In this document: piece by piece, positions 36,540 through 47,170 of the stretch
Numbering within the stretch: the stretch's first letter is position 1
Layout: every line of letters begins with the position of its first letter
From: Anaerolineaceae bacterium
Lineage (GTDB): Bacteria > Chloroflexota > Anaerolineae > Anaerolineales > Anaerolineaceae
Assembly (NCBI GenBank): GCA_040766895.1
Contig: JAXGPR010000002.1
Location: forward strand, 16,991 to 80,990
Length of the DNA stretch: 64,000 nt
Direction of reading: 5' to 3'
Notes under the pieces: model-generated
The model's input: the letters and a program-made list of their open reading frames with translations, nothing else
Told to the model about the DNA's origin: nothing
Database searches by the model: none
Translations under genes and position numbers: made by a program

Positions 36540-38018
36540 TTATGCTTCGCTTTCTGGTTCTGTTTCTTCTTCTGCAGCTGGTTCTTTTTCTTGTTCTGTT
36601 TGGATTTCCTCCGAGCCTACTTCTGATTGGTTGGATTGTTCCTCACGTTCTTCTGCTTGAAGAGATTCAGGCGCTGCAAGCCGGCGTAACTGTAGACGGA
36701 GGGCTTCTTCGAAGGCTTGCTCCGTGGCAAGAATAGAAACACTTTGAGTGAATTTTCTTTCGCCTAAGCTGCGCTGCACCTCTTCCAGTTCACCCGAGCG
36801 TATTAGTTCAGAAAGAACATTGCTAATTTGTCTCTCCAGTTCTTCCTTACTTATTTGAATATTGTATTTCTTTACGATTGCTTGCTTAATTAGGGAGCGC
36901 TCCAAACGATCGACGGCAGAGGGGCGTACTTCCTTCTTGATAAATTCTTCTTTATCGAGCTTCCGCAGCTTAAGATATAAATCGAGATTCATCTGTTGAT
37001 GTGAAAGTTCATGCTCCAGGTCATCTAAGACGTCCTCTACTTCTTTGGAGAGCACCTGAGGGGGATACTTAATTGAAGATTTTTCCCGAATCCGATCAAT
37101 CAATCCATTGTAGTAATTCTCATCATATTCTGCTTTTGCGCTTGTTTGCATGCTATTGCGAATGTATTCTTCTATCTCTTCACGAGATTTAAAGTCTCCC
37201 ATCTTCTGTAAGAAATCTTCATCAACTTCTGGTAATTCCAACCCTTTCACCGATTGGACTTTCACTTTGAAAATGACACGCTTACCGACCAGGTCCCCAT
37301 CTGGAGTATCATCGGAGAACTCATGCTCAATGTCGAGCTCGTCGCCAGCGTTGACGCCAATCAATTGCCGCGCAAACCCCTTAAAAGGCCACTCGGTTTC
37401 ATTCTGTTCTTTTTCTGTAGGAATGAAAACTTGTTGGGGGGTGGATTGAATAAGTTCTGCTTCCTCTCCTTCTTGGGCTTGGGCATTCACAGCGCTAAGC
37501 GTGAAAAAAACTAAATCGCCTTCTTTCGCTGGAGTATCAAGCGGAATAATGGTGCTTGCGTTGCGTCGCGCTGCGAGAAGAGTTCCTTGGACATCTTCCT
37601 CGGCGATTGTTGGTGGTTCATAAGGCTCTTTGAGGTCATCTAAATTGCCAAGTTCCACAGTCGGTTCGAGTGGAATCGTGAAAAAGAAAATTACAGAATC
37701 TTCAATTTTTACATCATCTAAGGCGCCCGGTCCAGAAGGTTTGATACCTGCTTCCTTGACGACTTCGGGATAAAACCTATCCACCATCAAGTCTATAGCG
37801 TTATTCATTATGGTTTCTTCACCCACATAGTTCACAACCATGTTATAGGGCGCTTTGCCAGGACGGAAACCAGGAATTCGGGTTTCCTTTGCTAATTGAC
37901 GAGCTGCTTTTCGCTCATAGGTTTCTAAAACCTCCGTATCAAACTCAACGGTTACTTTTGCCTGATGGTCTTCGGTAAAATCGGTTTGAATCTTCAAAAT
38001 ATGCCTCTCAACAATCAA
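36540..38018 (-). CDS. tig: Trigger factor
   Basis: N-terminal ribosome-binding motif IPGFRPGKAP, an FKBP-like middle, and a long acidic C-terminus. The clpP-adjacent position is typical. Confidence 0.9.
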   Translation of the reverse strand: MIVERHILKIQTDFTEDHQAKVTVEFDTEVLETYERKAARQLAKETRIPGFRPGKAPYNMVVNYVGEETIMNNAIDLMVDRFYPEVVKEAGIKPSGPGALDDVKIEDSVIFFFTIPLEPTVELGNLDDLKEPYEPPTIAEEDVQGTLLAARRNASTIIPLDTPAKEGDLVFFTLSAVNAQAQEGEEAELIQSTPQQVFIPTEKEQNETEWPFKGFARQLIGVNAGDELDIEHEFSDDTPDGDLVGKRVIFKVKVQSVKGLELPEVDEDFLQKMGDFKSREEIEEYIRNSMQTSAKAEYDENYYNGLIDRIREKSSIKYPPQVLSKEVEDVLDDLEHELSHQQMNLDLYLKLRKLDKEEFIKKEVRPSAVDRLERSLIKQAIVKKYNIQISKEELERQISNVLSELIRSGELEEVQRSLGERKFTQSVSILATEQAFEEALRLQLRRLAAPESLQAEEREEQSNQSEVGSEEIQTEQEKEPAAEEETEPESEA

Positions 38019-38035
38019 TTTTTAAGTAAATGCTG

Positions 38036-38117
38036 TGGGGAAAGAGAGGCTCGAACTCTCACGCGTTGCCGCACATGATCCTAAGTCATGCCTGTCTGCC
38101 AATTCCAGCATTTCCCC
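38036..38117 (-). tRNA. tRNA-Leu (anticodon UAG), long variable arm
   Basis: Reverse complement GGGGAAATGCTGGAATTGGCAGACAGGCATGACTTAGGATCATGTGCGGCAACGCGTGAGAGTTCGAGCCTCTCTTTCCCCA. Acceptor GGGGAAA/TTTCCCC and anticodon loop CTTAGGA. Confidence 0.9.
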
Positions 38118-38291
38118 TGGGAAATGAAATTATAAACAAGTCGGATATTCCCGTCAAACAAATTCTGAAAAGCAGTACTTTTGGTAATAGTTTCATATTT
38201 TCAGAGATTAGACAGAGAAGATTACAGAATTCTGGAAGGTGCTAAAATATCAACAATTTGTTCATTTACTACATATTTATCGGAGGTAAAT

Positions 38292-38732
38292 ATGCTTTCA
38301 CTTTTAAACATACCTGGCTTTCTTGGAACAAAGGCTTCGATGCTCTCAGATATTTCTTTAGTTTTATGTGCCATTTCGCTCGTCCTTTTTATCCTGGGTG
38401 CGGTCCAAGCGCGCTCGCGCAAATTTCGCCAGCACAAGGTAACTCAAACTGTAGCCATTATTTTGGTCTTCTTGGCGATCGTCTTATTTATGGCGCCAGT
38501 TTATACTCAGGATTACGAAGCAGCGGGCACCACGCCCTTCCTTCCGAATGGTTTGGTTGCACTGCACGCCGGGTTGGGTGGTCTCACGCTTTTGTATGGC
38601 ATTTATGTGACTTTGGTCGGTTATAACGTTTTCCATGCAAAAAATAAGAAGTTGCTTATGCAAATCGCTACCGTGCTTTTTATTATTGTGAATATCAGTG
38701 GCATCGTGATTTACCTCAATTTATATCTATGA
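38292..38732 (+). CDS. DUF420-like integral membrane protein
   Basis: 146 aa with 4 TM helices. The ATG at 38292 is preceded by GGAGG (atcGGAGGtaaatATG). Confidence 0.55.
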   Translation: MLSLLNIPGFLGTKASMLSDISLVLCAISLVLFILGAVQARSRKFRQHKVTQTVAIILVFLAIVLFMAPVYTQDYEAAGTTPFLPNGLVALHAGLGGLTLLYGIYVTLVGYNVFHAKNKKLLMQIATVLFIIVNISGIVIYLNLYL

Positions 38733-38746
38733 GATTGAATCTTCCA

Positions 38747-38786
38747 TAAAGCCCCACTCTCCTGAAGGAAATTCCTGCCTTCAGGA
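38747..38786 (+). terminator. Rho-independent terminator
   Basis: 12-bp stem ctctcctgaagg / ccttcaggagag followed by TTTATTT. Confidence 0.65.
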
Positions 38787-38858
38787 GAGTTTATTTACGC
38801 AATTTTGACAGAAGCTATAATAGATTAAGAATCCTTTTTCCAAAAAAGCTGTTTGCTT

Positions 38859-39590
38859 ATGGCTGAACAAATACGCATCGGCACTTCGGGTTGGCTCTAT
38901 AAACATTGGCAGGGGATTTTTTATCCTGAGGATATTTCTCAAAAGCAGTGGTTTGCGTATTATGCGCGTTCTTTTGATACTGTAGAAATCAACAGCACTT
39001 TTTACCATCTCCACAACGCGAGCGTATTCGAGCACTGGCGGCAACAAGCTCCAGGTGGCTTCTTATATTCAATCAAAGCCAGCCGTATTATTACGCACAA
39101 CCAGCGGCTCGAAGGCTGCCAGGACACATTAGAAACCTTTTTAAGCCGCGCCAGCCTCCTGGGGGAGACCTTGGGTCCTGTCCTTTTCCAGCTGCCGCCT
39201 AGTTTCTCGCTTGATCTCAGTCGGTTCGAAAGCTTCTTGGCTCTCCTGCCCCAGGGGTTTTCGTACGCGATGGAGTTCCGCAACCCCACCTGGTTGACGG
39301 AAGAGGTCTTTGCGTTGTTGGAGCGCTTCGGCGTGGCGCTCTGCATTCACGATATGCCCCCGCTGCAGGTGCCGTTACGCATTACCGCTAAGTTCGTCTA
39401 TTTGCGCTTCCATGGCGACGTTGACCATACTGGTGATTATCCTCTCGAGACGCTCGCGCTCTGGGCAGAGCGGATGAAAGCCTGGCAGCGCCAGGGACTG
39501 GCGGTTTTTGCATACTTCAATAACGACACCGGCGGGATGGCAGTGCGTAATGCACTGACGATTAAGCAGCTCTTGGGGCAGGGCAGCTGA
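38859..39590 (+). CDS. DUF72-family protein
   Basis: IRIGTSGWLYKHWQGIFYP...YARSFDTVEINSTFY is the DUF72 N-terminal signature. Confidence 0.85.
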   Translation: MAEQIRIGTSGWLYKHWQGIFYPEDISQKQWFAYYARSFDTVEINSTFYHLHNASVFEHWRQQAPGGFLYSIKASRIITHNQRLEGCQDTLETFLSRASLLGETLGPVLFQLPPSFSLDLSRFESFLALLPQGFSYAMEFRNPTWLTEEVFALLERFGVALCIHDMPPLQVPLRITAKFVYLRFHGDVDHTGDYPLETLALWAERMKAWQRQGLAVFAYFNNDTGGMAVRNALTIKQLLGQGS

Positions 39591-39599
39591 CCAGAGCGT

Positions 39600-41837
39600 T
39601 CAAACTTCTAAAAGCGCCCTGTTCCAAGTATCCAGTGGCAGTTGAATGCCACCTTTGAGCGTCCATTCCAAGAGCACCTGCGGGTCAATACCAAAGGGCA
39701 GCAGCACACTCCCGCCGGCTTTAGCCAGCAATTCCAGATACTTGTGCTGATTCAGCTTGGCGGGGTCCACTTGCCCGCCTAATTCCCAAGCGTATACATC
39801 CGGCTCGCCCTGCATAAATAGGAAGCGCACACGCTGCCCCGGGCGGATCTGCATGCCGGCAGCTTGCAGCTGGCGTGCAGCGCGCACCGAAGCCGTGGCG
39901 CTCTTGTAAGCCTCCAAGGCGTAGCTAACCTTGCCATTCACCACCAACAGCTCCGGCGGCACCTGACCTTGCTTCAACTTCCTGACGGATTGTTCATACA
40001 CCTGAAAAGCTGCGTGCAAAGCCTCTGGCAATTCGGCGCGGGTTTTTGCCTGACCCAGGCAAGTGAGCATTTCGGTTTGCACCTGAGCGATCCAGCGTGG
40101 GGTATCCCGCCGGCGGGCTTCCAAGCCGCGCACTTTAATCTCGCCGCTCTGGAAGACGCCAAAATAGCGGTTGGGGATGGGCACACGTGGGTCGGTTTTG
40201 GAGGGCAAAAAAGCCACCCAGCGGTAAATGCCATCTAGGGCAATCGCCAGCCCAGTGCGGCTGGAAATCTTGTGCATCACGTCTTCGAAATGCTCTGGCT
40301 TGCTGCAACCCTTTTTCTTCAGCCAAAGGGCATCCACGTACATGTGCAGCACTTCGAAGCCTTCTTCCTCGGCGACTTCTTTAGCGCGCAGCAGCACCTC
40401 GCGCCCGCCTTTAGTAACTGCCTCGTGTGCTTCGATGCGCCCGTAACGCGCATTTTTGTAGCCCAAAAAACCAAAGCAAACCACCAGCAGCCATTTCAGC
40501 GCCGCGGAGCGCGCTTTTAACGTCTTTGCCATGGGATGGTCAGGTGGGTAAAAGCGGGTTTTGGTTTTGAGTGCCACGCGCTTCTCGTAGATGGGCTTGA
40601 GCGTCAGCGGGACCACGCCCAGCTCTTCGCTAGCTGGTGTGAGCACATCTGGCAGCGGCACTTCCGGAGAAATATTGCCATGAATGATGACTGCTGGGTA
40701 CATGGAGACGAAATCGATCTCAGCTACGTCGCTGTGCAGCCCCACTTTGGGCTGGTAGATCATCCCGCCGCGATCGGACTGAATCAGCTGCAAACCGCTT
40801 TTAAACTCTTCTACTTGGCGCTTTTGATAGGGCACCAGGATGTCTTTTTGCAGTGCGGTAATTACTTGCATAGCTGAGATGCCCTGACCAGGCGAAACGC
40901 GCGCCGCTTTTTCGATGGGCAGGGTGGTAACGCGCGCCATCTCTAACGTGCCGGCTAAGCTGTAATCGGACCACATCATCGCGGATTTGCGGTCAACGTG
41001 GCAGCGCCCGAAGAGGTGCGCTTCCTCCGGGCGGAAAATGATATGACCATACGAAAAATAGGTGATTTCTTTCTGCCAGCGCACCGGCCGGCTGAGGTCG
41101 CGGTTGAGCGCCAAGGGAATGCCTAACTGTTCTGATTGCCGTAGCAGGAAGGGCAGCAGCCAACTATCTCCCCAATCCGTTACCAAAATGTCTGGGTCAT
41201 AAGCTGCGAGGGCTGCATTGATCGCTTGCAGGTAATTGCCCTGCGCGTCCAGCGGCAGGCTCTGGCTAAAGCGGTCCGAGCGCAGGCTGAGCGCCTGCAC
41301 TGCGCTGTGGGTAGGGTCTACGTCGGGCGTAAGCTCCAGAATGCGCAAGGGTGGCAGCGCGGGCATCACATCCCAGCGGCTGTTGAGCGTCTCTAAGGAT
41401 TGGATGCGGTTCTGGCTGTCGGCTTCCAACTGGCACAGCGCCAAAGGAAAGGCGCCATAGCGCGCGATGTAACGCGTGCTAATGGTTACATCTGCGTCGT
41501 ACCAAATCAGGGTGGGGAATTGGTCTTCTAGCCGGTGGAAAAGCTCCACTTGGTGGGCAGGTGTATCCACGTCGATCGCTAGTACGTCAACCGGATCCGC
41601 TACAAAGACGTCTTGCTTTTGTTGGCGGGTGAGCTTGGTGACGGCTGGCTCTTTGCGCAGCGCCTTCCATAAGCGGCGCAGGTCATCGGAGGCGCCGGCA
41701 GCGTAAAACGTGACTGGAAAGCGCTGGGTGAAGCAGACACGGCTGTCATCACTTTCGGAGATAAACCACAGCGTCAAGCCGTCTTGCTGGTTGAGGTACA
41801 GGTCCAGCAGCCATCCGCGGAAGGTTGGGTTGCTCAT
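39600..41837 (-). CDS. Family-B DNA polymerase, exonuclease motifs degenerate, atypical motif C
   Basis: Motif A DFVSMYPAVI (40715-40686). Motif B-like KWLLVVCFGFLGYKNARYG. Motif C position YVDALW (40340-40323) instead of YGDTDS. KxY-region NRYFGV...IKVRGLEARRRDTPRW. The ExoI/II/III positions read LRILELT, TDWGDSWLLPFL and YSLAG, without the expected acidic residues. Confidence 0.85.
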   Translation of the reverse strand: MSNPTFRGWLLDLYLNQQDGLTLWFISESDDSRVCFTQRFPVTFYAAGASDDLRRLWKALRKEPAVTKLTRQQKQDVFVADPVDVLAIDVDTPAHQVELFHRLEDQFPTLIWYDADVTISTRYIARYGAFPLALCQLEADSQNRIQSLETLNSRWDVMPALPPLRILELTPDVDPTHSAVQALSLRSDRFSQSLPLDAQGNYLQAINAALAAYDPDILVTDWGDSWLLPFLLRQSEQLGIPLALNRDLSRPVRWQKEITYFSYGHIIFRPEEAHLFGRCHVDRKSAMMWSDYSLAGTLEMARVTTLPIEKAARVSPGQGISAMQVITALQKDILVPYQKRQVEEFKSGLQLIQSDRGGMIYQPKVGLHSDVAEIDFVSMYPAVIIHGNISPEVPLPDVLTPASEELGVVPLTLKPIYEKRVALKTKTRFYPPDHPMAKTLKARSAALKWLLVVCFGFLGYKNARYGRIEAHEAVTKGGREVLLRAKEVAEEEGFEVLHMYVDALWLKKKGCSKPEHFEDVMHKISSRTGLAIALDGIYRWVAFLPSKTDPRVPIPNRYFGVFQSGEIKVRGLEARRRDTPRWIAQVQTEMLTCLGQAKTRAELPEALHAAFQVYEQSVRKLKQGQVPPELLVVNGKVSYALEAYKSATASVRAARQLQAAGMQIRPGQRVRFLFMQGEPDVYAWELGGQVDPAKLNQHKYLELLAKAGGSVLLPFGIDPQVLLEWTLKGGIQLPLDTWNRALLEV

Positions 41838-42268
41838 GGCGCCTCTTCGAAAGCGGTGTAGGAGACAGAAACAGATAAATCTGCTGGCACAGCTTGCGGG
41901 CTTTCAGCTGCTAATTCAAGCGCCTCCTGCGGAGCGAAGTTTTCCAGCGTTTCATTGAGCAGCTGCAAAAAACGGGCTTCTTTGCCAGAATTAAGCTGCA
42001 CTTGTGGGTCAGTAGATGCCTCGGCTTGGGCAACCTGCCTTTGCAGAGCCTTGAGCTCTTTGTAGACCTCCAGCAGAATGGCGATCAGGTACATATCCAG
42101 CGGGTAAAGGTTGGAAGCGTAAGAAGCCTCTGCCAAATGCTGGCGGGAAAGCACCAGCAATTCCTCCAGCAAAAGTTGGTCATCTTTACGCAGAGCGCGT
42201 TCAAAGCGCTTGAGGGCAGCTTCTTCCTGCAGCCAGGTTTGGGTGATGGATGCAATTGTGCGGCCCAT
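41834..42268 (-). CDS. Hypothetical helical protein (144 aa), middle gene of the PolB operon
   Basis: SD AAAGGAG lies 6 nt upstream of its ATG. Its TGA overlaps the PolB ATG (ATGA, 41837-41834). No recognised domain. Confidence 0.55.
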   Translation of the reverse strand: MGRTIASITQTWLQEEAALKRFERALRKDDQLLLEELLVLSRQHLAEASYASNLYPLDMYLIAILLEVYKELKALQRQVAQAEASTDPQVQLNSGKEARFLQLLNETLENFAPQEALELAAESPQAVPADLSVSVSYTAFEEAP

Positions 42269-42307
42269 AAAAGCTCCTTTCTATTCTATCGATAAAGCGA
42301 TAAAGCG

Positions 42308-42883
42308 TTACATCATCGCAAATAGCGTCGGCTGCAAACCTTGCTCGGCAGGCAGCGCGGACGGCTCTTCCCAATGCATGTCCGAAGATGAGCGTAGCTG
42401 GTCTAAAAAGCCAGTGCGTGCGGCAGAAATCTGCGGTACAGGCTTAGCACTCACCACCACGGGGGCGCTCTGACCCAGCAGCCGTAGGCAAGTCAGACTG
42501 CGCGTGAGCAAGCGCTGACTGTCTTTCAGCTCCACATCTTCATCCAGGAAGGTAGCCAGCAAATCCAGCACAATCAGCGGTTCGTGGGGCGGCGCTGCAG
42601 CAACGGCTTCCAGCATGGCTAGCACCTGATAGCAGGTGAAAGCCCGCGAGAGGCGGATATTTGCCATTACAGCGGCTGGGTCGGAGGTGTAGGGGCGGAT
42701 GGTTTTAGCCACCGCATACATGTTCGAGCGGTTGCCGCAATCCAGAATGGTGGCGCGCTGCTTGAGCGCTAAGGCAGCCACAAGCTCCAACATTTTCTCT
42801 GTGAGCGCATGCTGCCCAATGACCACCAGCAAGCCGGCGGGTAAGGGGTCCTTAAAGGGAATTAAGCTGAAATCTGCGTCCAT
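42308..42883 (-). CDS. RecA-fold-like protein lacking a Walker A motif (ImuA/SulA-like pseudo-ATPase candidate)
   Basis: The beta-strand LLVVIG is followed by QHALTEKM where GxxGxGKT/S would be. Walker-B-like PLIVLDLLATF. 191 aa from the second ATG (42883); the first ATG (42889) abuts the -10 hexamer. Confidence 0.5.
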   Translation of the reverse strand: MDADFSLIPFKDPLPAGLLVVIGQHALTEKMLELVAALALKQRATILDCGNRSNMYAVAKTIRPYTSDPAAVMANIRLSRAFTCYQVLAMLEAVAAAPPHEPLIVLDLLATFLDEDVELKDSQRLLTRSLTCLRLLGQSAPVVVSAKPVPQISAARTGFLDQLRSSSDMHWEEPSALPAEQGLQPTLFAMM

Positions 42884-42889
42884 ATTCAT

Positions 42890-42917
42890 ATTATATAGAA
42901 TATTTGTTCTATGTCAA
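42890..42917 (-). promoter_or_regulatory. Consensus sigma70-type promoter of the PolB operon (TTGACA-16 nt-TATAAT)
   Basis: The minus strand reads cctcTTGACAtagaacaaatattctaTATAATatgaatATGgac. -35 at 42917-42912 and -10 at 42895-42890. The predicted TSS is about 42883, the A of the second ATG. Confidence 0.55.
42896..42911. promoter_or_regulatory. SOS-box-like 16-bp imperfect palindrome (proximal), filling the promoter spacer
   Basis: The minus strand reads TAGAACAAATATTCTA. Core GAAC-AAAT-ATTC has one mismatch to GAAC-N4-GTTC. Confidence 0.5.
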
Positions 42918-42924
42918 GAGGCTA

Positions 42925-42940
42925 TAGAACATCTGTACTA
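42925..42940. promoter_or_regulatory. SOS-box-like 16-bp imperfect palindrome (distal)
   Basis: The minus strand reads TAGTACAGATGTTCTA. Core GTAC-AGAT-GTTC has one mismatch to GAAC-N4-GTTC. It is 29 bp centre-to-centre from the proximal box. Confidence 0.45.
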
Positions 42941-43061
42941 TTTTACAGCTTGTTTTGTCTGGCTGCAGGGGAGGAGCGTGTGAACGTCACCGGAAAAAGC
43001 TGATCCGATTGGTTATAATAATGCGCGAAAAGAGAGACATTTTACAGGTAGATGCATAAAG

Positions 43062-43481
43062 ATGACAACGATTAAAGGTAACGAAAGTGGCACCACGCTG
43101 CGCAACCGATTGAGCAAATCGATCGTGCAGGCGCTCCGCCTGCTCATGCAAAAGCAAGAGCCGGACGCAGAAAGCCGCGACTTGGCAGCTTATATTGTCT
43201 TGGCATTGGAGAAAATTACCGAGTCTGTCGAAACTACCGCCAGCGCTTGGGAGAAACGCGATTACTGGCTGAAAGCCGATCGCTTCCGCCAAGAATGGGC
43301 TTGGTGTGAAGCCAGAAGCCAAGCTTTGGCAGAAGCATTGCGAGCGGATGACTGGGCTGGTGTAGCACAGGAATTAGCGTTCATTGGTCAAGCGCTGCGT
43401 GGGGTGGAGGTAAGCACTAATAACCGCATTGGGAAGCCTTGGGTTGGTGCATGGGAAAAGTTTTCAGAACGACTTGCGTAG
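43062..43481 (+). CDS. Hypothetical protein (139 aa), divergent from the PolB operon
   Basis: GC-rich ORF with coding-like composition. Predicted helical and Trp-rich (DYWLKADRFRQEWAWCEARSQAL). No recognised domain. Confidence 0.5.
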   Translation: MTTIKGNESGTTLRNRLSKSIVQALRLLMQKQEPDAESRDLAAYIVLALEKITESVETTASAWEKRDYWLKADRFRQEWAWCEARSQALAEALRADDWAGVAQELAFIGQALRGVEVSTNNRIGKPWVGAWEKFSERLA

Positions 43482-44019
43482 ATTTTGAATGGCATTTTGA
43501 CATTTGCTCAACCCTTACGGTACAGAAATAATGGGTGAGGCATAAAAACCGAATTTTGGTTTATGGTTATGATAAGTATCATTATCATAAGCATTTGATA
43601 TCGAGCAAAAGGCGGCTTCTTAGCGAAAATTGGGCTGCTCCAAAGAGGCTTATTCTAATAGTGGATTATTCGACCGTAAAAATGTGAAGTAACAATATGT
43701 AGTAGATGAGCAGCACCTTGTATGTGCTGAATGTTTTCTACACCAAGATAATTCTTTTCCTTGATTTATTAAACTTTGCAATTCAATGCTAACTAACCCC
43801 TTTTTATTCGTGAGGTACGTTTACATCTCTTTATGATCATGTTGAAAATTACTTGTCACTATAGGATAAGAATATCTGGACAAAGGTATAGTGACAGTAA
43901 ATCTAAACTTGCTATTAAAAGTATAAAAAACTATACGCAATACACACTAAATAATGGGGTTAATAATAATATCCTACAATTTATCGAAACCATTCAGAAA
44001 ATACGTTATAATTTTACCG

Positions 44020-44997
44020 ATGAATGATAACCTCACCATCCAACAAGTCATCGATCGTTATCTCAATTCTGTGCGCCTCTCACGCAGCGCCAATACTGCT
44101 CGCACGTATCGTAACGCGATGCACCTTTTTATTACGGTGCTAACAGTCCACCAGATCGACCCGGAGCAAGAGCCCATTACAAAATTGGGTGAAGAACCAG
44201 TTGTTTGGATGACCACGGCGCTTAAAGACTATTCCGCGCATACTGAGCAATGTTACCTCACAGCAATGGTAGGTTTCTATGAATACCTTGCTGGAGAAGA
44301 CTTGGCGCAAATCAACCTGCCACGGGTACGGCTGCTCATCAAACAGCGGGCACGTAAACCCGGGATTCGCTTACCACAATTCCCCAAATCAGATATTGAA
44401 ACTGTCCTTGAATATGCTGCTAATCTAAACCAGCAAGAAACCAGTAATGAAATTGAGCACTTGATAAACCTGCGAGATCGTGCTTTTCTGCTCACCTTAG
44501 CTGATACTGGCTTGCGTGTGCATGAGGCGTGCAACCTACGCCGTGGGGATATCGATTGGCACGAGAGCCGCGCTGTTATCATTGGCAAAGGCAATCGAGA
44601 AGCAGTTTTACGCTTTTCTCGGCGCAGCTTGAGAGCAATCAAGGATTATCTTTCAGCGCGGGCTGAAATGGATGGAAGCGGCTCTAAAGCCCTGAGTTCC
44701 CTACCTGTCTTCGCACGCCATGATCGCGCCAGTGGAAAAAAGGTCAAACCTATCTCCACAACCACCGGACGCGAAATTGTCAATCAACGGGTACGTGAGG
44801 CGCTTGGAGAAGAAGCCGTGGGTACCATTACTCCCCATTCTTTCCGGCATTATTTTGTGACTACTATTTTGCTCGTATCTGGTAATCTAAAACTCGCACA
44901 GGAACTCGCACGGCACCAAAATATCGCAGTAACGCAACGCTATAGCCACCTGAGCGATGAGGAACTTGACCGTAAGTACATGGAAATCTTTGATTAA
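44020..44997 (+). CDS. Tyrosine recombinase/integrase (XerC/XerD-like)
   Basis: N-terminal SAM-like core-binding domain. Catalytic set: R (LADTGLRVHEA), K (GKGNRE), HxxR (PHSFRHYF), H (LARHQN), Y (TQRYSH). Confidence 0.85.
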   Translation: MNDNLTIQQVIDRYLNSVRLSRSANTARTYRNAMHLFITVLTVHQIDPEQEPITKLGEEPVVWMTTALKDYSAHTEQCYLTAMVGFYEYLAGEDLAQINLPRVRLLIKQRARKPGIRLPQFPKSDIETVLEYAANLNQQETSNEIEHLINLRDRAFLLTLADTGLRVHEACNLRRGDIDWHESRAVIIGKGNREAVLRFSRRSLRAIKDYLSARAEMDGSGSKALSSLPVFARHDRASGKKVKPISTTTGREIVNQRVREALGEEAVGTITPHSFRHYFVTTILLVSGNLKLAQELARHQNIAVTQRYSHLSDEELDRKYMEIFD

Positions 44998-45055
44998 GGC
45001 GCTTCATGGTATGATATTCTCCGATTAAACCAGCGGAGGTATTAAATCTCACACC

Positions 45056-47170
45056 ATGACGGATTATCGCATCAATTCTCACCCCATTCTGCACGATAAT
45101 TCTCTACCCACCCTCACTTTTTATTGGAATGACCAACCATTTTTAGCCAAGCCTGGCGAAATGATCGCCTCAGCGCTGTATGCTCATGGCATCCGCATTT
45201 TTGGACATCACCCTAAAGACAATGCCCCTCAAGGCATTTTTTGTGCGAATGGGCAATGTGCACAATGTATGGTAATTGCTGACGGCTTACCGGTTAAAGC
45301 CTGTATGACCGCTGTCCGCTCAGATATGCGCATTAAGCCAGCCGATGGGCTGCCTGTGCTGCCAGAGGTGCCCATGCAGGCGTATGCTGGCTTGCCAATC
45401 ACTGAATATTCAATTGAGGTGCTGATTATTGGCGGGGGTCCAGCAGGGCTTTCAGCGGCTAAGGAGCTTGGCGAGCAAGGTGTTAGTGTCTTACTTATCG
45501 ACGATAAGAGTAAATTAGGTGGAAAGTTGGTGCTGCAAACACACCGCTTTTTTGGTTCCAAAGAAGCCGTTTTCGCCGGCACGCGTGGGATTGATATTGC
45601 CAAAAAGTTGGAAGAGCAAGTGCGCGCCCTGCCAAGCATAACCGTTTGGCTAAGCTCCACAGCGATAGGTATATTCGAAGATCATTCTGTCGGTGTGCTC
45701 CGTGAAGGTTCCGAATATGTGTTAGTTCACCCACAGGTTTTGCTCGTGGCTACAGGCGCACGCGAGAAGAGCTTAGCCTTCCCGGGCAATACACTTCCGG
45801 GTGTTTATGGCGCTGGCGCTTTTCAGACGCTGGTCAATCGGGACCTGGTGAAGCCTTGTCAGAACCTCTTTATCGTCGGTGGCGGTAATGTAGGCTTGAT
45901 CGCCGGATACCATGCCATTCAAGCGGGCATTCACGTGGCTGGCTTGGTGGAGGCTGCACCGCAATGCGGCGGTTATAAAGTGCATCAGGATAAATTAGCA
46001 CGGTCAGGCGTACCGATTTACACCTCCCATACGGTAGTTGAAGCATTAGGGGCAGATCATATTGAAAAGGTGGTTATTGCCCAATTGGACGAGCAATTCC
46101 AACCAATCCCTGGCACAGAAAAAATCTTTTCTTGCGATACGCTGCTCATCGCGGTTGGACTGGATCCAGTGAACGAATTTACACGCAAGGCACAAGAGGT
46201 TGGCTTGCCAGTATTTGCCGCTGGAGATGCTCATGAAATTGCAGAAGCTTCTGCTGCTATTTTTTCTGGCAAAATCGTTGGTAATCAAATTGCCGAGCGC
46301 TTAGGTATACCAATTGAATCGATCCCCCAGGAATGGTACCGCATCGAAGATATCCTCAAATCCAAACCTGGTAAAACCTTCGCAGAGGTGCCTTATTCTG
46401 AAACCAAAGGGGTTTTCCCAGTATTACACTGCATACAGGAAATTCCCTGTGACCCTTGCGCTAGTATTTGCCCGCGAAATCTCATCCATGTAAATCCAGA
46501 GGACATTCGCTCCCTTCCCCATTTTCTGCAGGATGAGCAAAAGGGCTGTACTGGCTGCTTGCGTTGTGTTGCCGTTTGCCCCGGCTTAGCCATTACCTTA
46601 GTGGATTTCCGCAAGAGCCAAGAGTTAGCACAAGTTTCTCTACCCTATGAGCTGCTGCCTGACAATTTGAAAATCGGTGATATGGTTGAAGTAACCGATA
46701 CGGATGGTGGGATGCTTGGTTGTTTTCCCGTGTTGAAGGTTCGGCAACTACCTTCCTTCAGCGGCACAACGATTGTAACAATCGAAGTACCCACGGAACT
46801 CGCTACACAGATTGCTGGTATGCGCTTGATTGCGCAAAGCGAACCTGAGCCTTTTGACCAGGTCGGTGAATTCTCTGAGCATCTGGATGATGAAGCTTAC
46901 ATTTGCCGCTGTGAAAGGGTGAAAGCTGGCGAAATTCGCAGTCTGATTCGGACGGGCGTTCGGGATATCAACCAGATCAAAGCCCTCACCCGCGCGAGTA
47001 TGGGTTCCTGCGGTGGGAAAACTTGCCTGAGTCTCATCAAGCGCCTCTATCAAGCAGAAGGCATCCCCCTTTCGGAGGTCACGGAACCACCGGTGCGGCC
47101 AGTTTTTGTGGAGGTCCCCCTTTCCATCCTAGCCAATATCAGGCTGGAAGATGAAGAAGGTGAGCGATGA
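45056..47170 (+). CDS. Multidomain FAD/NAD(P) oxidoreductase (sarcosine/opine oxidase alpha / HcnAB / proline dehydrogenase alpha-like) with Fe-S domains
   Basis: N-terminal 2Fe-2S-type FCANGQCAQCMV...KACMT. Two Rossmann motifs, IIGGGPAGLSAA and IVGGGNVGLIAG. 4Fe-4S motifs CDPCASICP and CTGCLRCVAVCP. BFD-like CRCERV...CGGKTC. Confidence 0.8.
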   Translation: MTDYRINSHPILHDNSLPTLTFYWNDQPFLAKPGEMIASALYAHGIRIFGHHPKDNAPQGIFCANGQCAQCMVIADGLPVKACMTAVRSDMRIKPADGLPVLPEVPMQAYAGLPITEYSIEVLIIGGGPAGLSAAKELGEQGVSVLLIDDKSKLGGKLVLQTHRFFGSKEAVFAGTRGIDIAKKLEEQVRALPSITVWLSSTAIGIFEDHSVGVLREGSEYVLVHPQVLLVATGAREKSLAFPGNTLPGVYGAGAFQTLVNRDLVKPCQNLFIVGGGNVGLIAGYHAIQAGIHVAGLVEAAPQCGGYKVHQDKLARSGVPIYTSHTVVEALGADHIEKVVIAQLDEQFQPIPGTEKIFSCDTLLIAVGLDPVNEFTRKAQEVGLPVFAAGDAHEIAEASAAIFSGKIVGNQIAERLGIPIESIPQEWYRIEDILKSKPGKTFAEVPYSETKGVFPVLHCIQEIPCDPCASICPRNLIHVNPEDIRSLPHFLQDEQKGCTGCLRCVAVCPGLAITLVDFRKSQELAQVSLPYELLPDNLKIGDMVEVTDTDGGMLGCFPVLKVRQLPSFSGTTIVTIEVPTELATQIAGMRLIAQSEPEPFDQVGEFSEHLDDEAYICRCERVKAGEIRSLIRTGVRDINQIKALTRASMGSCGGKTCLSLIKRLYQAEGIPLSEVTEPPVRPVFVEVPLSILANIRLEDEEGER

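Follow-up and report, generated by a model that had tools for sequence, protein, structure and literature searches.

The DNA described here is a stretch of 64,000 nt (64 kb; hereafter the window, to which all coordinates are relative) from an Anaerolineaceae bacterium, and our analysis focuses on positions 39600-42940. According to the list of open reading frames (ORFs) of the window, this region contains three closely packed minus-strand genes, which encode an inactivated RadA/Rad51-family protein (iRadA), a small protein that is predicted to be helical (PPB2), and a family-B DNA polymerase (PolB2). The iRadA and PPB2 genes are separated by a gap of 39 nt (42269-42307) that contains the sequence AAAGGAG, and the stop codon of PPB2 shares the tetranucleotide ATGA (41837-41834) with the start codon of PolB2. 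An earlier reading of this DNA, referred to here as the original prediction, had described the packing, the gap, and the overlap, and all three are confirmed in the sequence. Together with the features of the individual proteins, this arrangement indicates that the locus is very probably the operon of a bacterial PolB2 mutasome, carried by an Anaerolineaceae genome near Candidatus Mesolinea.

PolB2 matches PF00136 (E = 5.5e-23) and has NF004416 as its best NCBIfam model (8e-112), while the NCBIfam models for Pol II give E-values of 4e-14 to 2.5e-8, far under their cut-offs. Its residues were read from alignments to archaeal PolB structures (PDB) and to 15 homologues. In the homologue alignments D375, the motif B lysine K448, and D502 are invariant, and the palm residues R557/Y558 are, like these three, invariant or nearly so across sequences that are 56-98% identical. 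Motif C reads YVD at residues 500-502 and [YF]VD in all 16 aligned homologues, and the Chloroflexota PolB2 entries in the supplement of PMC11791011 also read YVD. The proofreading residues, which the original prediction could not recognize, are indeed gone: the ExoI D-x-E is aligned to T-P-D, the ExoII Asp is changed to Leu, approximately 50 residues are missing between GRxHxD and the ExoIII region, and the position of the ExoIII Asp is an invariant Gly296, the last by manual reading of a stretch outside the tool alignments. With the catalytic residues of ExoI, ExoII, and ExoIII replaced, the exonuclease of PolB2 is, as judged from its sequence, dead. At the sequence level, the homologue alignment further reveals a loop with an invariant TYFSYG followed by HVD-RK, in which D282 is invariant; the role of such an F-x-x-G / D(K/R) loop in iRadA binding comes from PMC11791011. 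The ungapped segment from motif B to motif C is 62% identical to archaeal (Thermoplasmata) PolB2 and 74% identical to a Myxococcota PolB2, but only 34% identical to the canonical PolB of P. abyssi. Two further candidate features of PolB2 were rejected. The C-terminal QLPL, considered as a second clamp motif, is lost in homologues that are 56-58% identical, and a PADLOC 'HEase' match, which covers positions 1390-1607 of a 1671-position model, is read as a match to an intein-containing PolB model and not as defence.

The AlphaFold2 (AF2) model of iRadA (pLDDT 87.4, pTM 0.82) consists only of a RadA/Rad51 ATPase-core fold (191-193 amino acids (aa)) without an N-terminal domain. All top 50 Foldseek matches of this model are Rad51, RadA, DMC1, or Rad51 paralogues (E down to 3e-8, TMq 0.55-0.69), and RadA and DMC1 also rank first, weakly (E 0.016), in the profile search. 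The loop after strand 1 reads G25-Q-H-A-L-T-E-K and contains no GxxxxGK[TS] P-loop, with G25 alone invariant among 20 homologues. On the basis of the model, iRadA is an inactivated RadA/Rad51-fold protein of the RecA superfamily. The Walker-A-less RecA-type fold of the original prediction thus stands as far as the superfamily and the missing GK[TS] are concerned, whereas the nearest folds are those of Rad51, RadA, and DMC1 and not those of RecA, ImuA, or SulA. At its C-terminus iRadA ends in LQPTLFAMM, and Q-x-x-L-[FL] is found in 20/20 homologues. QPTLF is the predicted beta-clamp-binding motif of iRadA and belongs to a class of C-terminal clamp motifs described in PMC11791011. In addition, iRadA matches phrog_16666, a family of unknown function, with E = 1e-8.

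PPB2 begins with MGRTIASITQTW. Among its homologues this start is almost invariant, with M1 and T4 fixed and at least 90% conservation of both G2 and R3. Its AF2 monomer, computed from a 21-sequence alignment, places helices at residues 5-25, 28-49, 55-83, and 96-111 with low confidence, in keeping with the helical protein that had been predicted, and searches of Pfam and NCBIfam return no Y-family match, as had also been expected for this accessory protein. Homologues of PPB2 carry a precomputed annotation with PF26485, which was not returned for PPB2 itself in the Pfam search of the window proteins. PPB2 also matches phrog_26583, again of unknown function (E = 2e-8; residues 1-82 on a 90-position profile). 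Given the PHROG matches of iRadA and PPB2, relatives of both occur in viral/proviral sequence collections.

PPB2 has 144 aa here, whereas its relatives in Longilinea, Brevefilum, and Pelolinea have about 87-89 aa. The additional residues (88-144, 41834-42007) form a variable acidic linker, the fourth of the predicted helices, and a conserved tail at the C-terminus with the consensus Y-x-[DE]-[FL]-[EQ]-[ED]-[AG]-[PA], which contains FEEAP in 41/72 loci. The junction of PPB2 with PolB2 varies among loci (ATGA, GTGA, or TGATG). Because this junction varies and because synonymous codons vary within the tail, the Tyr and Phe/Leu of the tail look constrained at the protein level, with the caveat that these codons also contain the GAGG of the ribosome-binding site of PolB2.

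The association of these three genes has been published. Linkage of PolB2, inactivated RadA, and arCOG07300 was reported in 2014, also in bacteria and sometimes with lexA nearby (Makarova 2014, PMC4104785), and Timinskas, Timinskas and Venclovas in 2025 introduced the names iRadA and PPB2 for the partners and presented a model of a heteropentameric PolB2:iRadA:PPB2x3 'PolB2 mutasome', in a dataset that explicitly takes in Anaerolineaceae (PMC11791011). A 2026 survey labels the group G2/PolB2 (PMC12926913). In bacterial operons the only order reported is iRadA-PPB2-PolB2, beta-clamp motifs lie mostly on iRadA, and lexA, SRAP, and DUF72 are enriched near polB2 (PMC11791011). Further diagnostic features of the system are an N-terminal MGRT arm on PPB2, substitution of the first Asp of DxD, and a D(K/R) loop of PolB2 preceded by a Rad51-like oligomerisation motif (PMC11791011). 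At our locus, the three genes are co-oriented and adjacent in the order iRadA-PPB2-PolB2, and the MGRT arm, the dead exonuclease, the YVD motif, the Walker-A-less RadA/Rad51 fold, and the clamp motif are all present. Named members of the system from the PMC11791011 supplement (proteins of L. arvoryzae, B. fermentans, and L. illini) were compared by BLASTP. Against the L. arvoryzae components, PolB2 is 49% identical over 386 aligned N-terminal residues (E = 6e-130), iRadA is 44% identical (E = 9e-38), and PPB2 is 49% identical over residues 1-87 (E = 3e-21). Identities to the L. arvoryzae and B. fermentans components together span 42-49%, and matches to the Leptonema illini components are weaker but significant. 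The cassette has been described before, Anaerolineaceae included, and is not a new kind of system. The claim of the original prediction that this gene combination is undescribed fails against the 2014 and 2025 papers (PMC4104785, PMC11791011), and prior annotation of the cassette as a characterised system is an outcome that the original prediction itself had named as refuting the idea. The existing characterisation consists of description and in-silico work, with experimental characterisation only of the archaeal homologue.

PolB2 homologues are abundant in Anaerolineae, and in a scan of species-representative genomes 384 stretches encode a relative. Comparisons between loci use the best 80 of these 384 (L001-L080), of which 70 have enough upstream flank. 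The best 80 are all from Chloroflexota, nearly all of them labelled Anaerolineaceae or Anaerolinea, and the closest relative among them is Candidatus Mesolinea sp., with 98% identity. Co-occurrence in related genomes, which the original prediction had proposed as a test, is borne out: in 70/70 loci PolB2 is preceded by iRadA and PPB2 in unchanged order, and the remaining ten are cut by contig ends. Coordinates of the features are collected in Table 1.

Table 1. Features of the iRadA-PPB2-PolB2 locus, with coordinates in the window
Feature	Position	Strand	Remarks
Distal LexA-box-like palindrome AGTACAGATGTTCT	42926..42939	-	1 mismatch from GAAC-N4-GTTC; 9 nt upstream of -35
-35 hexamer TTGACA	42912..42917	-	12/12 promoter match; CTTGACA kept in 68/70 loci
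Proximal LexA (Cheo-type) box AGAACAAATATTCT	42897..42910	-	Occupies the -35/-10 spacer; 1 mismatch
-10 hexamer TATAAT	42890..42895	-	Part of the conserved TATATAAT
iRadA ORF	42308..42889	-	193 aa with the first ATG as start, 191 aa with the second
iRadA, inactivated RadA/Rad51-family protein	42308..42883	-	191 aa from the conserved ATG, probably leaderless; ORF reaches 42889
iRadA C-terminal beta-clamp-binding-type motif QPTLF	42320..42334	-	From the translation; Q186 and L189 invariant in 20 homologues
Shine-Dalgarno AAAGGAG for PPB2	42274..42280	-	5 nt before the PPB2 ATG
PPB2, small helical PolB2 partner	41834..42268	-	144 aa; N-terminal MGRT arm; clade-specific C-terminal extension ending YTAFEEAP
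PolB2, family-B DNA polymerase with decayed, inactive exonuclease domain	39600..41837	-	745 aa
PolB2 loop TYFSYGHIIFRPEEAHLFGRCHVDR	40989..41063	-	Invariant TYFSYG (F-x-x-G, Rad51-oligomerisation-like), then D(K/R) motif; proposed contact with iRadA and the PPB2 arm
PolB2 polymerase motif A DFVSMYPA	40692..40715	-	Metal-ligand Asp375 kept
PolB2 polymerase motif C, YVD replacing DxD	40332..40340	-	First Asp gone, catalytic second Asp502 kept
DUF72 gene	38853..39590	+	PF01904 at 5e-70; convergent neighbour outside the operon, its end 9 nt from the PolB2 stop

Upstream of the operon lie two minus-strand palindromes, TAGAACAAATATTCTA (proximal) and TAGTACAGATGTTCTA (distal), each one mismatch from GAAC-N4-GTTC, as the original prediction had noted. 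A TTGACA-16-TATAAT promoter (42917-42890, minus strand) scores 12/12, and the proximal palindrome sits exactly in its 16-nt spacer. The GAAC-N4-GTTC motif is the LexA operator, reportedly, of Dehalococcoides, a member of the Chloroflexota. In Gram-positive-type bacteria it is well established as the LexA motif (PMC3323433). When the upstream regions of the 70 related loci were anchored on the box, the arrangement CTTGACA-N2/3-GAAC-N4-GTTC-TATATAAT-N6-ATG was found to be kept in 68/70 of them, each a species, while sequence upstream of the -35 is not conserved among the compared loci. A box with at most one mismatch occupies the proximal position in 68/70 loci, and 49 related loci have it without any mismatch. 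The related loci together comprise 805 kb, in which there are 51 perfect GAAC-N4-GTTC sites, 49 of them at the iRadA promoter, against an expectation from base composition of 12.3 in total. Within the window, 14-mer palindromes with up to two mismatches occur 28 times versus 26.2 expected, and since this equals expectation the count by itself proves nothing. With at most one mismatch there are three in 64 kb, and two of these are at the operon promoter, 29 nt apart; the third near-perfect box (7360) is inside an ORF and was taken as chance. A palindrome of the GAAC-N4-GTTC type overlaps the promoter of the gene that it would regulate, which is the arrangement of a LexA-regulon operator as far as sequence can tell.

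The conserved promoter geometry also bears on the start of iRadA. Because TATAAT-N6-ATG is conserved, we place the start at the second ATG (42883), which yields the 191-aa protein of the original prediction. Since this ATG is 6 nt past the -10 hexamer, the iRadA mRNA would be leaderless or near-leaderless, and the promoter geometry suggests that the transcript is probably leaderless. As the operator fills the -35/-10 spacer, repression would occur by promoter occlusion. The distal box (42926-42939) is limited to the closest clade (L001-L010, L027, and L050; in L011 the copy is weaker and degenerate) and may be an auxiliary operator. We also considered it as an operator of the divergent gene p139 and rejected this assignment: the box is ~75 nt upstream of the sole plausible p139 -10, is absent from several p139-bearing loci, and overlaps no evident promoter of p139. 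The PolB2 literature that was searched reports the enrichment of lexA in the neighbourhood and does not describe this operator/promoter architecture. The conserved LexA-spacer promoter and its probably leaderless start, both predicted from sequence comparison, are added by our analysis to the published system, as are the conserved PPB2 tail and a GC excess of the operon described below.

These observations suggest a mechanism in which LexA would occlude the iRadA promoter until DNA damage triggers LexA cleavage and derepression. A single sigma-70-type promoter would drive all three genes, with PPB2 translated from its own Shine-Dalgarno sequence and PolB2 coupled to it through the ATGA overlap. 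The products would assemble, as predicted for the family, from one PolB2, one iRadA, and a trimer of PPB2. In this complex, PolB2 would hold iRadA through its Rad51-oligomerisation-like F-x-x-G loop (TYFSYG...HVDRK), the MGRT arm of PPB2 would insert between PolB2 and iRadA close to the DNA, and the C-terminal QPTLF of iRadA would tether the complex to the beta sliding clamp. The complex would then extend mismatched or lesion-bearing primer termini without proofreading, providing damage tolerance with mutations as the cost. Extension of distorted primer termini in this manner is experimentally shown only for archaeal Dpo2, in Sulfolobus (PMC7390963, PMC8764526). A multi-subunit, damage-inducible, error-prone polymerase, as envisaged in the original prediction, is the most likely reading of a locus that combines a pseudo-ATPase, a helical accessory protein, and a proofreading-dead PolB with a LexA-type operator in the promoter.

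Several points weigh against this reading. For this locus we infer that the operon is induced, that the complex forms and binds the clamp, and that it is mutagenic, and the PolB2 literature searched contains no experimental study of a bacterial PolB2 complex. The AF2 monomer of PPB2 is poor (pLDDT 58.5), so that its fold and trimer state rest on the family literature. Both boxes in the window carry one mismatch each. In addition, a tblastn search with E. coli LexA, which a divergent LexA may escape, found no lexA in the window nor, among the 80 related loci, at distances of up to 5 kb from the operon; with no lexA nearby, the operator is left to carry the case for LexA control by itself. Within the polymerase, motif B (KWLLVVCFG) is without the canonical N, S, and Y, and motif C is without its first Asp, and the catalytic competence of PolB2 is extrapolated from Dpo2 of S. 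islandicus. These losses, alongside the dead exonuclease, are also what would be expected if the complex were catalytically dead and had a regulatory or structural function at stalled forks or origins, in line with the inactivation of PolB2 that was originally proposed (PMC4104785). We consider this older view improbable, as D375, D502, K448, and R557/Y558 are invariant or nearly so among sequences 56-98% identical. Moreover, in Dpo2 of S. islandicus the DxD motif is replaced by IID, yet the enzyme is reported to be active and needed for targeted mutagenesis (PMC11791011; PMC7390963, PMC8764526).

The surroundings of the operon hold several further features. The DUF72 gene is present only in the five closest, Mesolinea-like loci, and DUF72 is related to UV-damage endonuclease TIM barrels (PMC11791011). 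Divergent from the operon is a 139-aa ORF, p139 (43062-43481, plus strand), which occupies the same position in 21/70 related loci, usually accompanies a gene for an XerC/D-like recombinase (43954-44997), and has no Pfam, NCBIfam, PADLOC, PHROG, or PDB match. A tRNA-Leu(tag) gene (38035-38117, minus strand) lies between a trigger-factor gene and a 183-aa membrane-protein ORF, ~740 nt before a GC-rich stretch begins, with the 3' end of the tRNA directed away from that stretch. The GC content at third codon positions (GC3) is 0.64-0.68 in DUF72, PolB2, and iRadA, 0.55 in PPB2, and moderately raised (0.54) in p139, while the other 37 ORFs of at least 150 aa in the window have a mean of 0.464 +/- 0.035 and a maximum of 0.524. 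The operon lies 4.7-17 GC points (mean 8.7) above its own flanks in 45/45 related loci with full flanks. Its GC tracks that of the host (r = 0.67), and the excess, which persists across 55-98% PolB2 identity, is unexplained. Because GC1 and GC2 are normal, the excess is synonymous.

The recombinase and tRNA-Leu genes, the raised GC3 (0.64-0.68 versus 0.46 +/- 0.035 elsewhere), and the weak PHROG matches of iRadA and PPB2 could point to a mobile element or provirus that has the operon as its cargo or replication module. This is very unlikely. The region 37900-45300 contains no att-like, direct, or inverted repeats beyond chance length, and the 3' end of the tRNA points away from the island. The recombinase itself has a host-like GC3 (0.46) and, in the 20 loci that bear it, an identity of 66-98%, a range like that of PolB2, and the operon occurs without it in 50 other loci. 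Furthermore, a proofreading-dead polymerase under a LexA operator is unlike a replicative or protein-primed PolB, and no PADLOC defence match was found save the intein-PolB artefact.

With the locus taken as a PolB2 mutasome operon, it is interesting to speculate whether Anaerolineaceae carry a distinct sub-type of this system, characterized by a leaderless LexA-spacer promoter, a tailed PPB2, and a synonymous GC excess. We put this forward tentatively and regard it as rather unlikely. If it were true, the LexA-spacer promoter would place an archaeal-derived operon in the SOS regulon despite a non-adjacent lexA, and the PPB2 tail might recruit a further partner, displayed three times by the PPB2 trimer. 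The GC excess might then stem from a regime of mutation, transfer, or expression-linked bias peculiar to these genes and not from ordinary recent acquisition. The locus belongs to a class of system that is predicted to represent the first translesion polymerase of prokaryotes that is both multi-subunit and B-family; the class is an archaeal import into bacteria. It is common in Anaerolineaceae, with relatives in 384 genome stretches, and the locus yields a testable regulatory prediction for the bacterial version that is conserved across ~70 species. The remaining interest of the locus lies in the LexA-spacer promoter, the clade-specific PPB2 tail, and the unexplained GC3 excess.

Among known systems, the closest are the bacterial type 1a operons of Longilinea arvoryzae, Brevefilum fermentans, and Pelolinea submarina (PMC11791011), which have in common with our locus the gene order, the MGRT arm, YVD, the dead exonuclease, and a Walker-A-less iRadA with a C-terminal beta-clamp motif. 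A DUF72 neighbour is reported for the type 1a family and is also found here. The locus differs from these members in its longer PPB2, with the extra helix and an acidic-aromatic tail, and in that lexA is not adjacent. The same three families form the PolB2/Dpo2, iRadA, and PPB2 (arCOG07300) system of Sulfolobus islandicus, in which proofreading and the first Asp of DxD are likewise lost. Damage induction and extension in translesion synthesis (TLS) are described for the archaeal homologue (PMC7390963, PMC8764526), and its operon is a damage-inducible, error-prone TLS extender. Unlike our locus, the Sulfolobus genes follow the order PPB2-PolB2-iRadA; archaeal members carry PCNA-type clamp motifs whereas bacterial members carry beta-clamp-type motifs, and archaeal neighbourhoods are enriched not in lexA but in homologues of Orc1/Cdc6, which are key in the archaeal DNA-damage response.

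More distant is ImuA-ImuB-DnaE2 (ImuABC), to which the original prediction had drawn a parallel. Like our locus, it is a LexA-controlled trio with a RecA-superfamily pseudo-ATPase and a proofreading-free, error-prone polymerase, and the parallel is sound as a functional analogy. It does not extend to homology: the ImuABC polymerase belongs to the C-family and ImuB is Y-family-like, neither of these families is represented at the locus, and there is no family-level homology to its proteins. That the locus arose independently as an analogue of ImuABC, or is a divergent member of it, is suggested by the shared logic of an SOS box followed by genes for a RecA-superfamily pseudo-ATPase, an accessory protein, and an error-prone polymerase, but is highly improbable given that the polymerase belongs to family B and not C, that the accessory protein has a helical core of ~90 aa and not a Y-family fold, that the ATPase-like protein is nearest to Rad51, RadA, and DMC1, that all three proteins match named components of the PolB2 system, and that archaeal orthologous operons are documented (PMC11791011).

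The PolB2 mutasome also resembles assemblies that are less closely related. Architectural parallels to the E. coli Pol V mutasome (UmuD'2C-RecA) and to eukaryotic Pol zeta are drawn in PMC11791011: the polymerase binds a member of the RecA/Rad51 family by an oligomerisation-like motif, an N-terminal arm of a small subunit lies near the active site, and a clamp is used. For Pol zeta, the comparison extends to a B-family extender with a dead exonuclease. Pol V differs in being a Y-family polymerase with an active RecA, and Pol zeta differs in that its accessory subunits are unrelated. Lastly, Pol II of the E. coli type is likewise a family-B and SOS-inducible polymerase, but it acts as a single subunit with an active DEDDy exonuclease, whereas the exonuclease residues of the PolB2 encoded at this locus are replaced.

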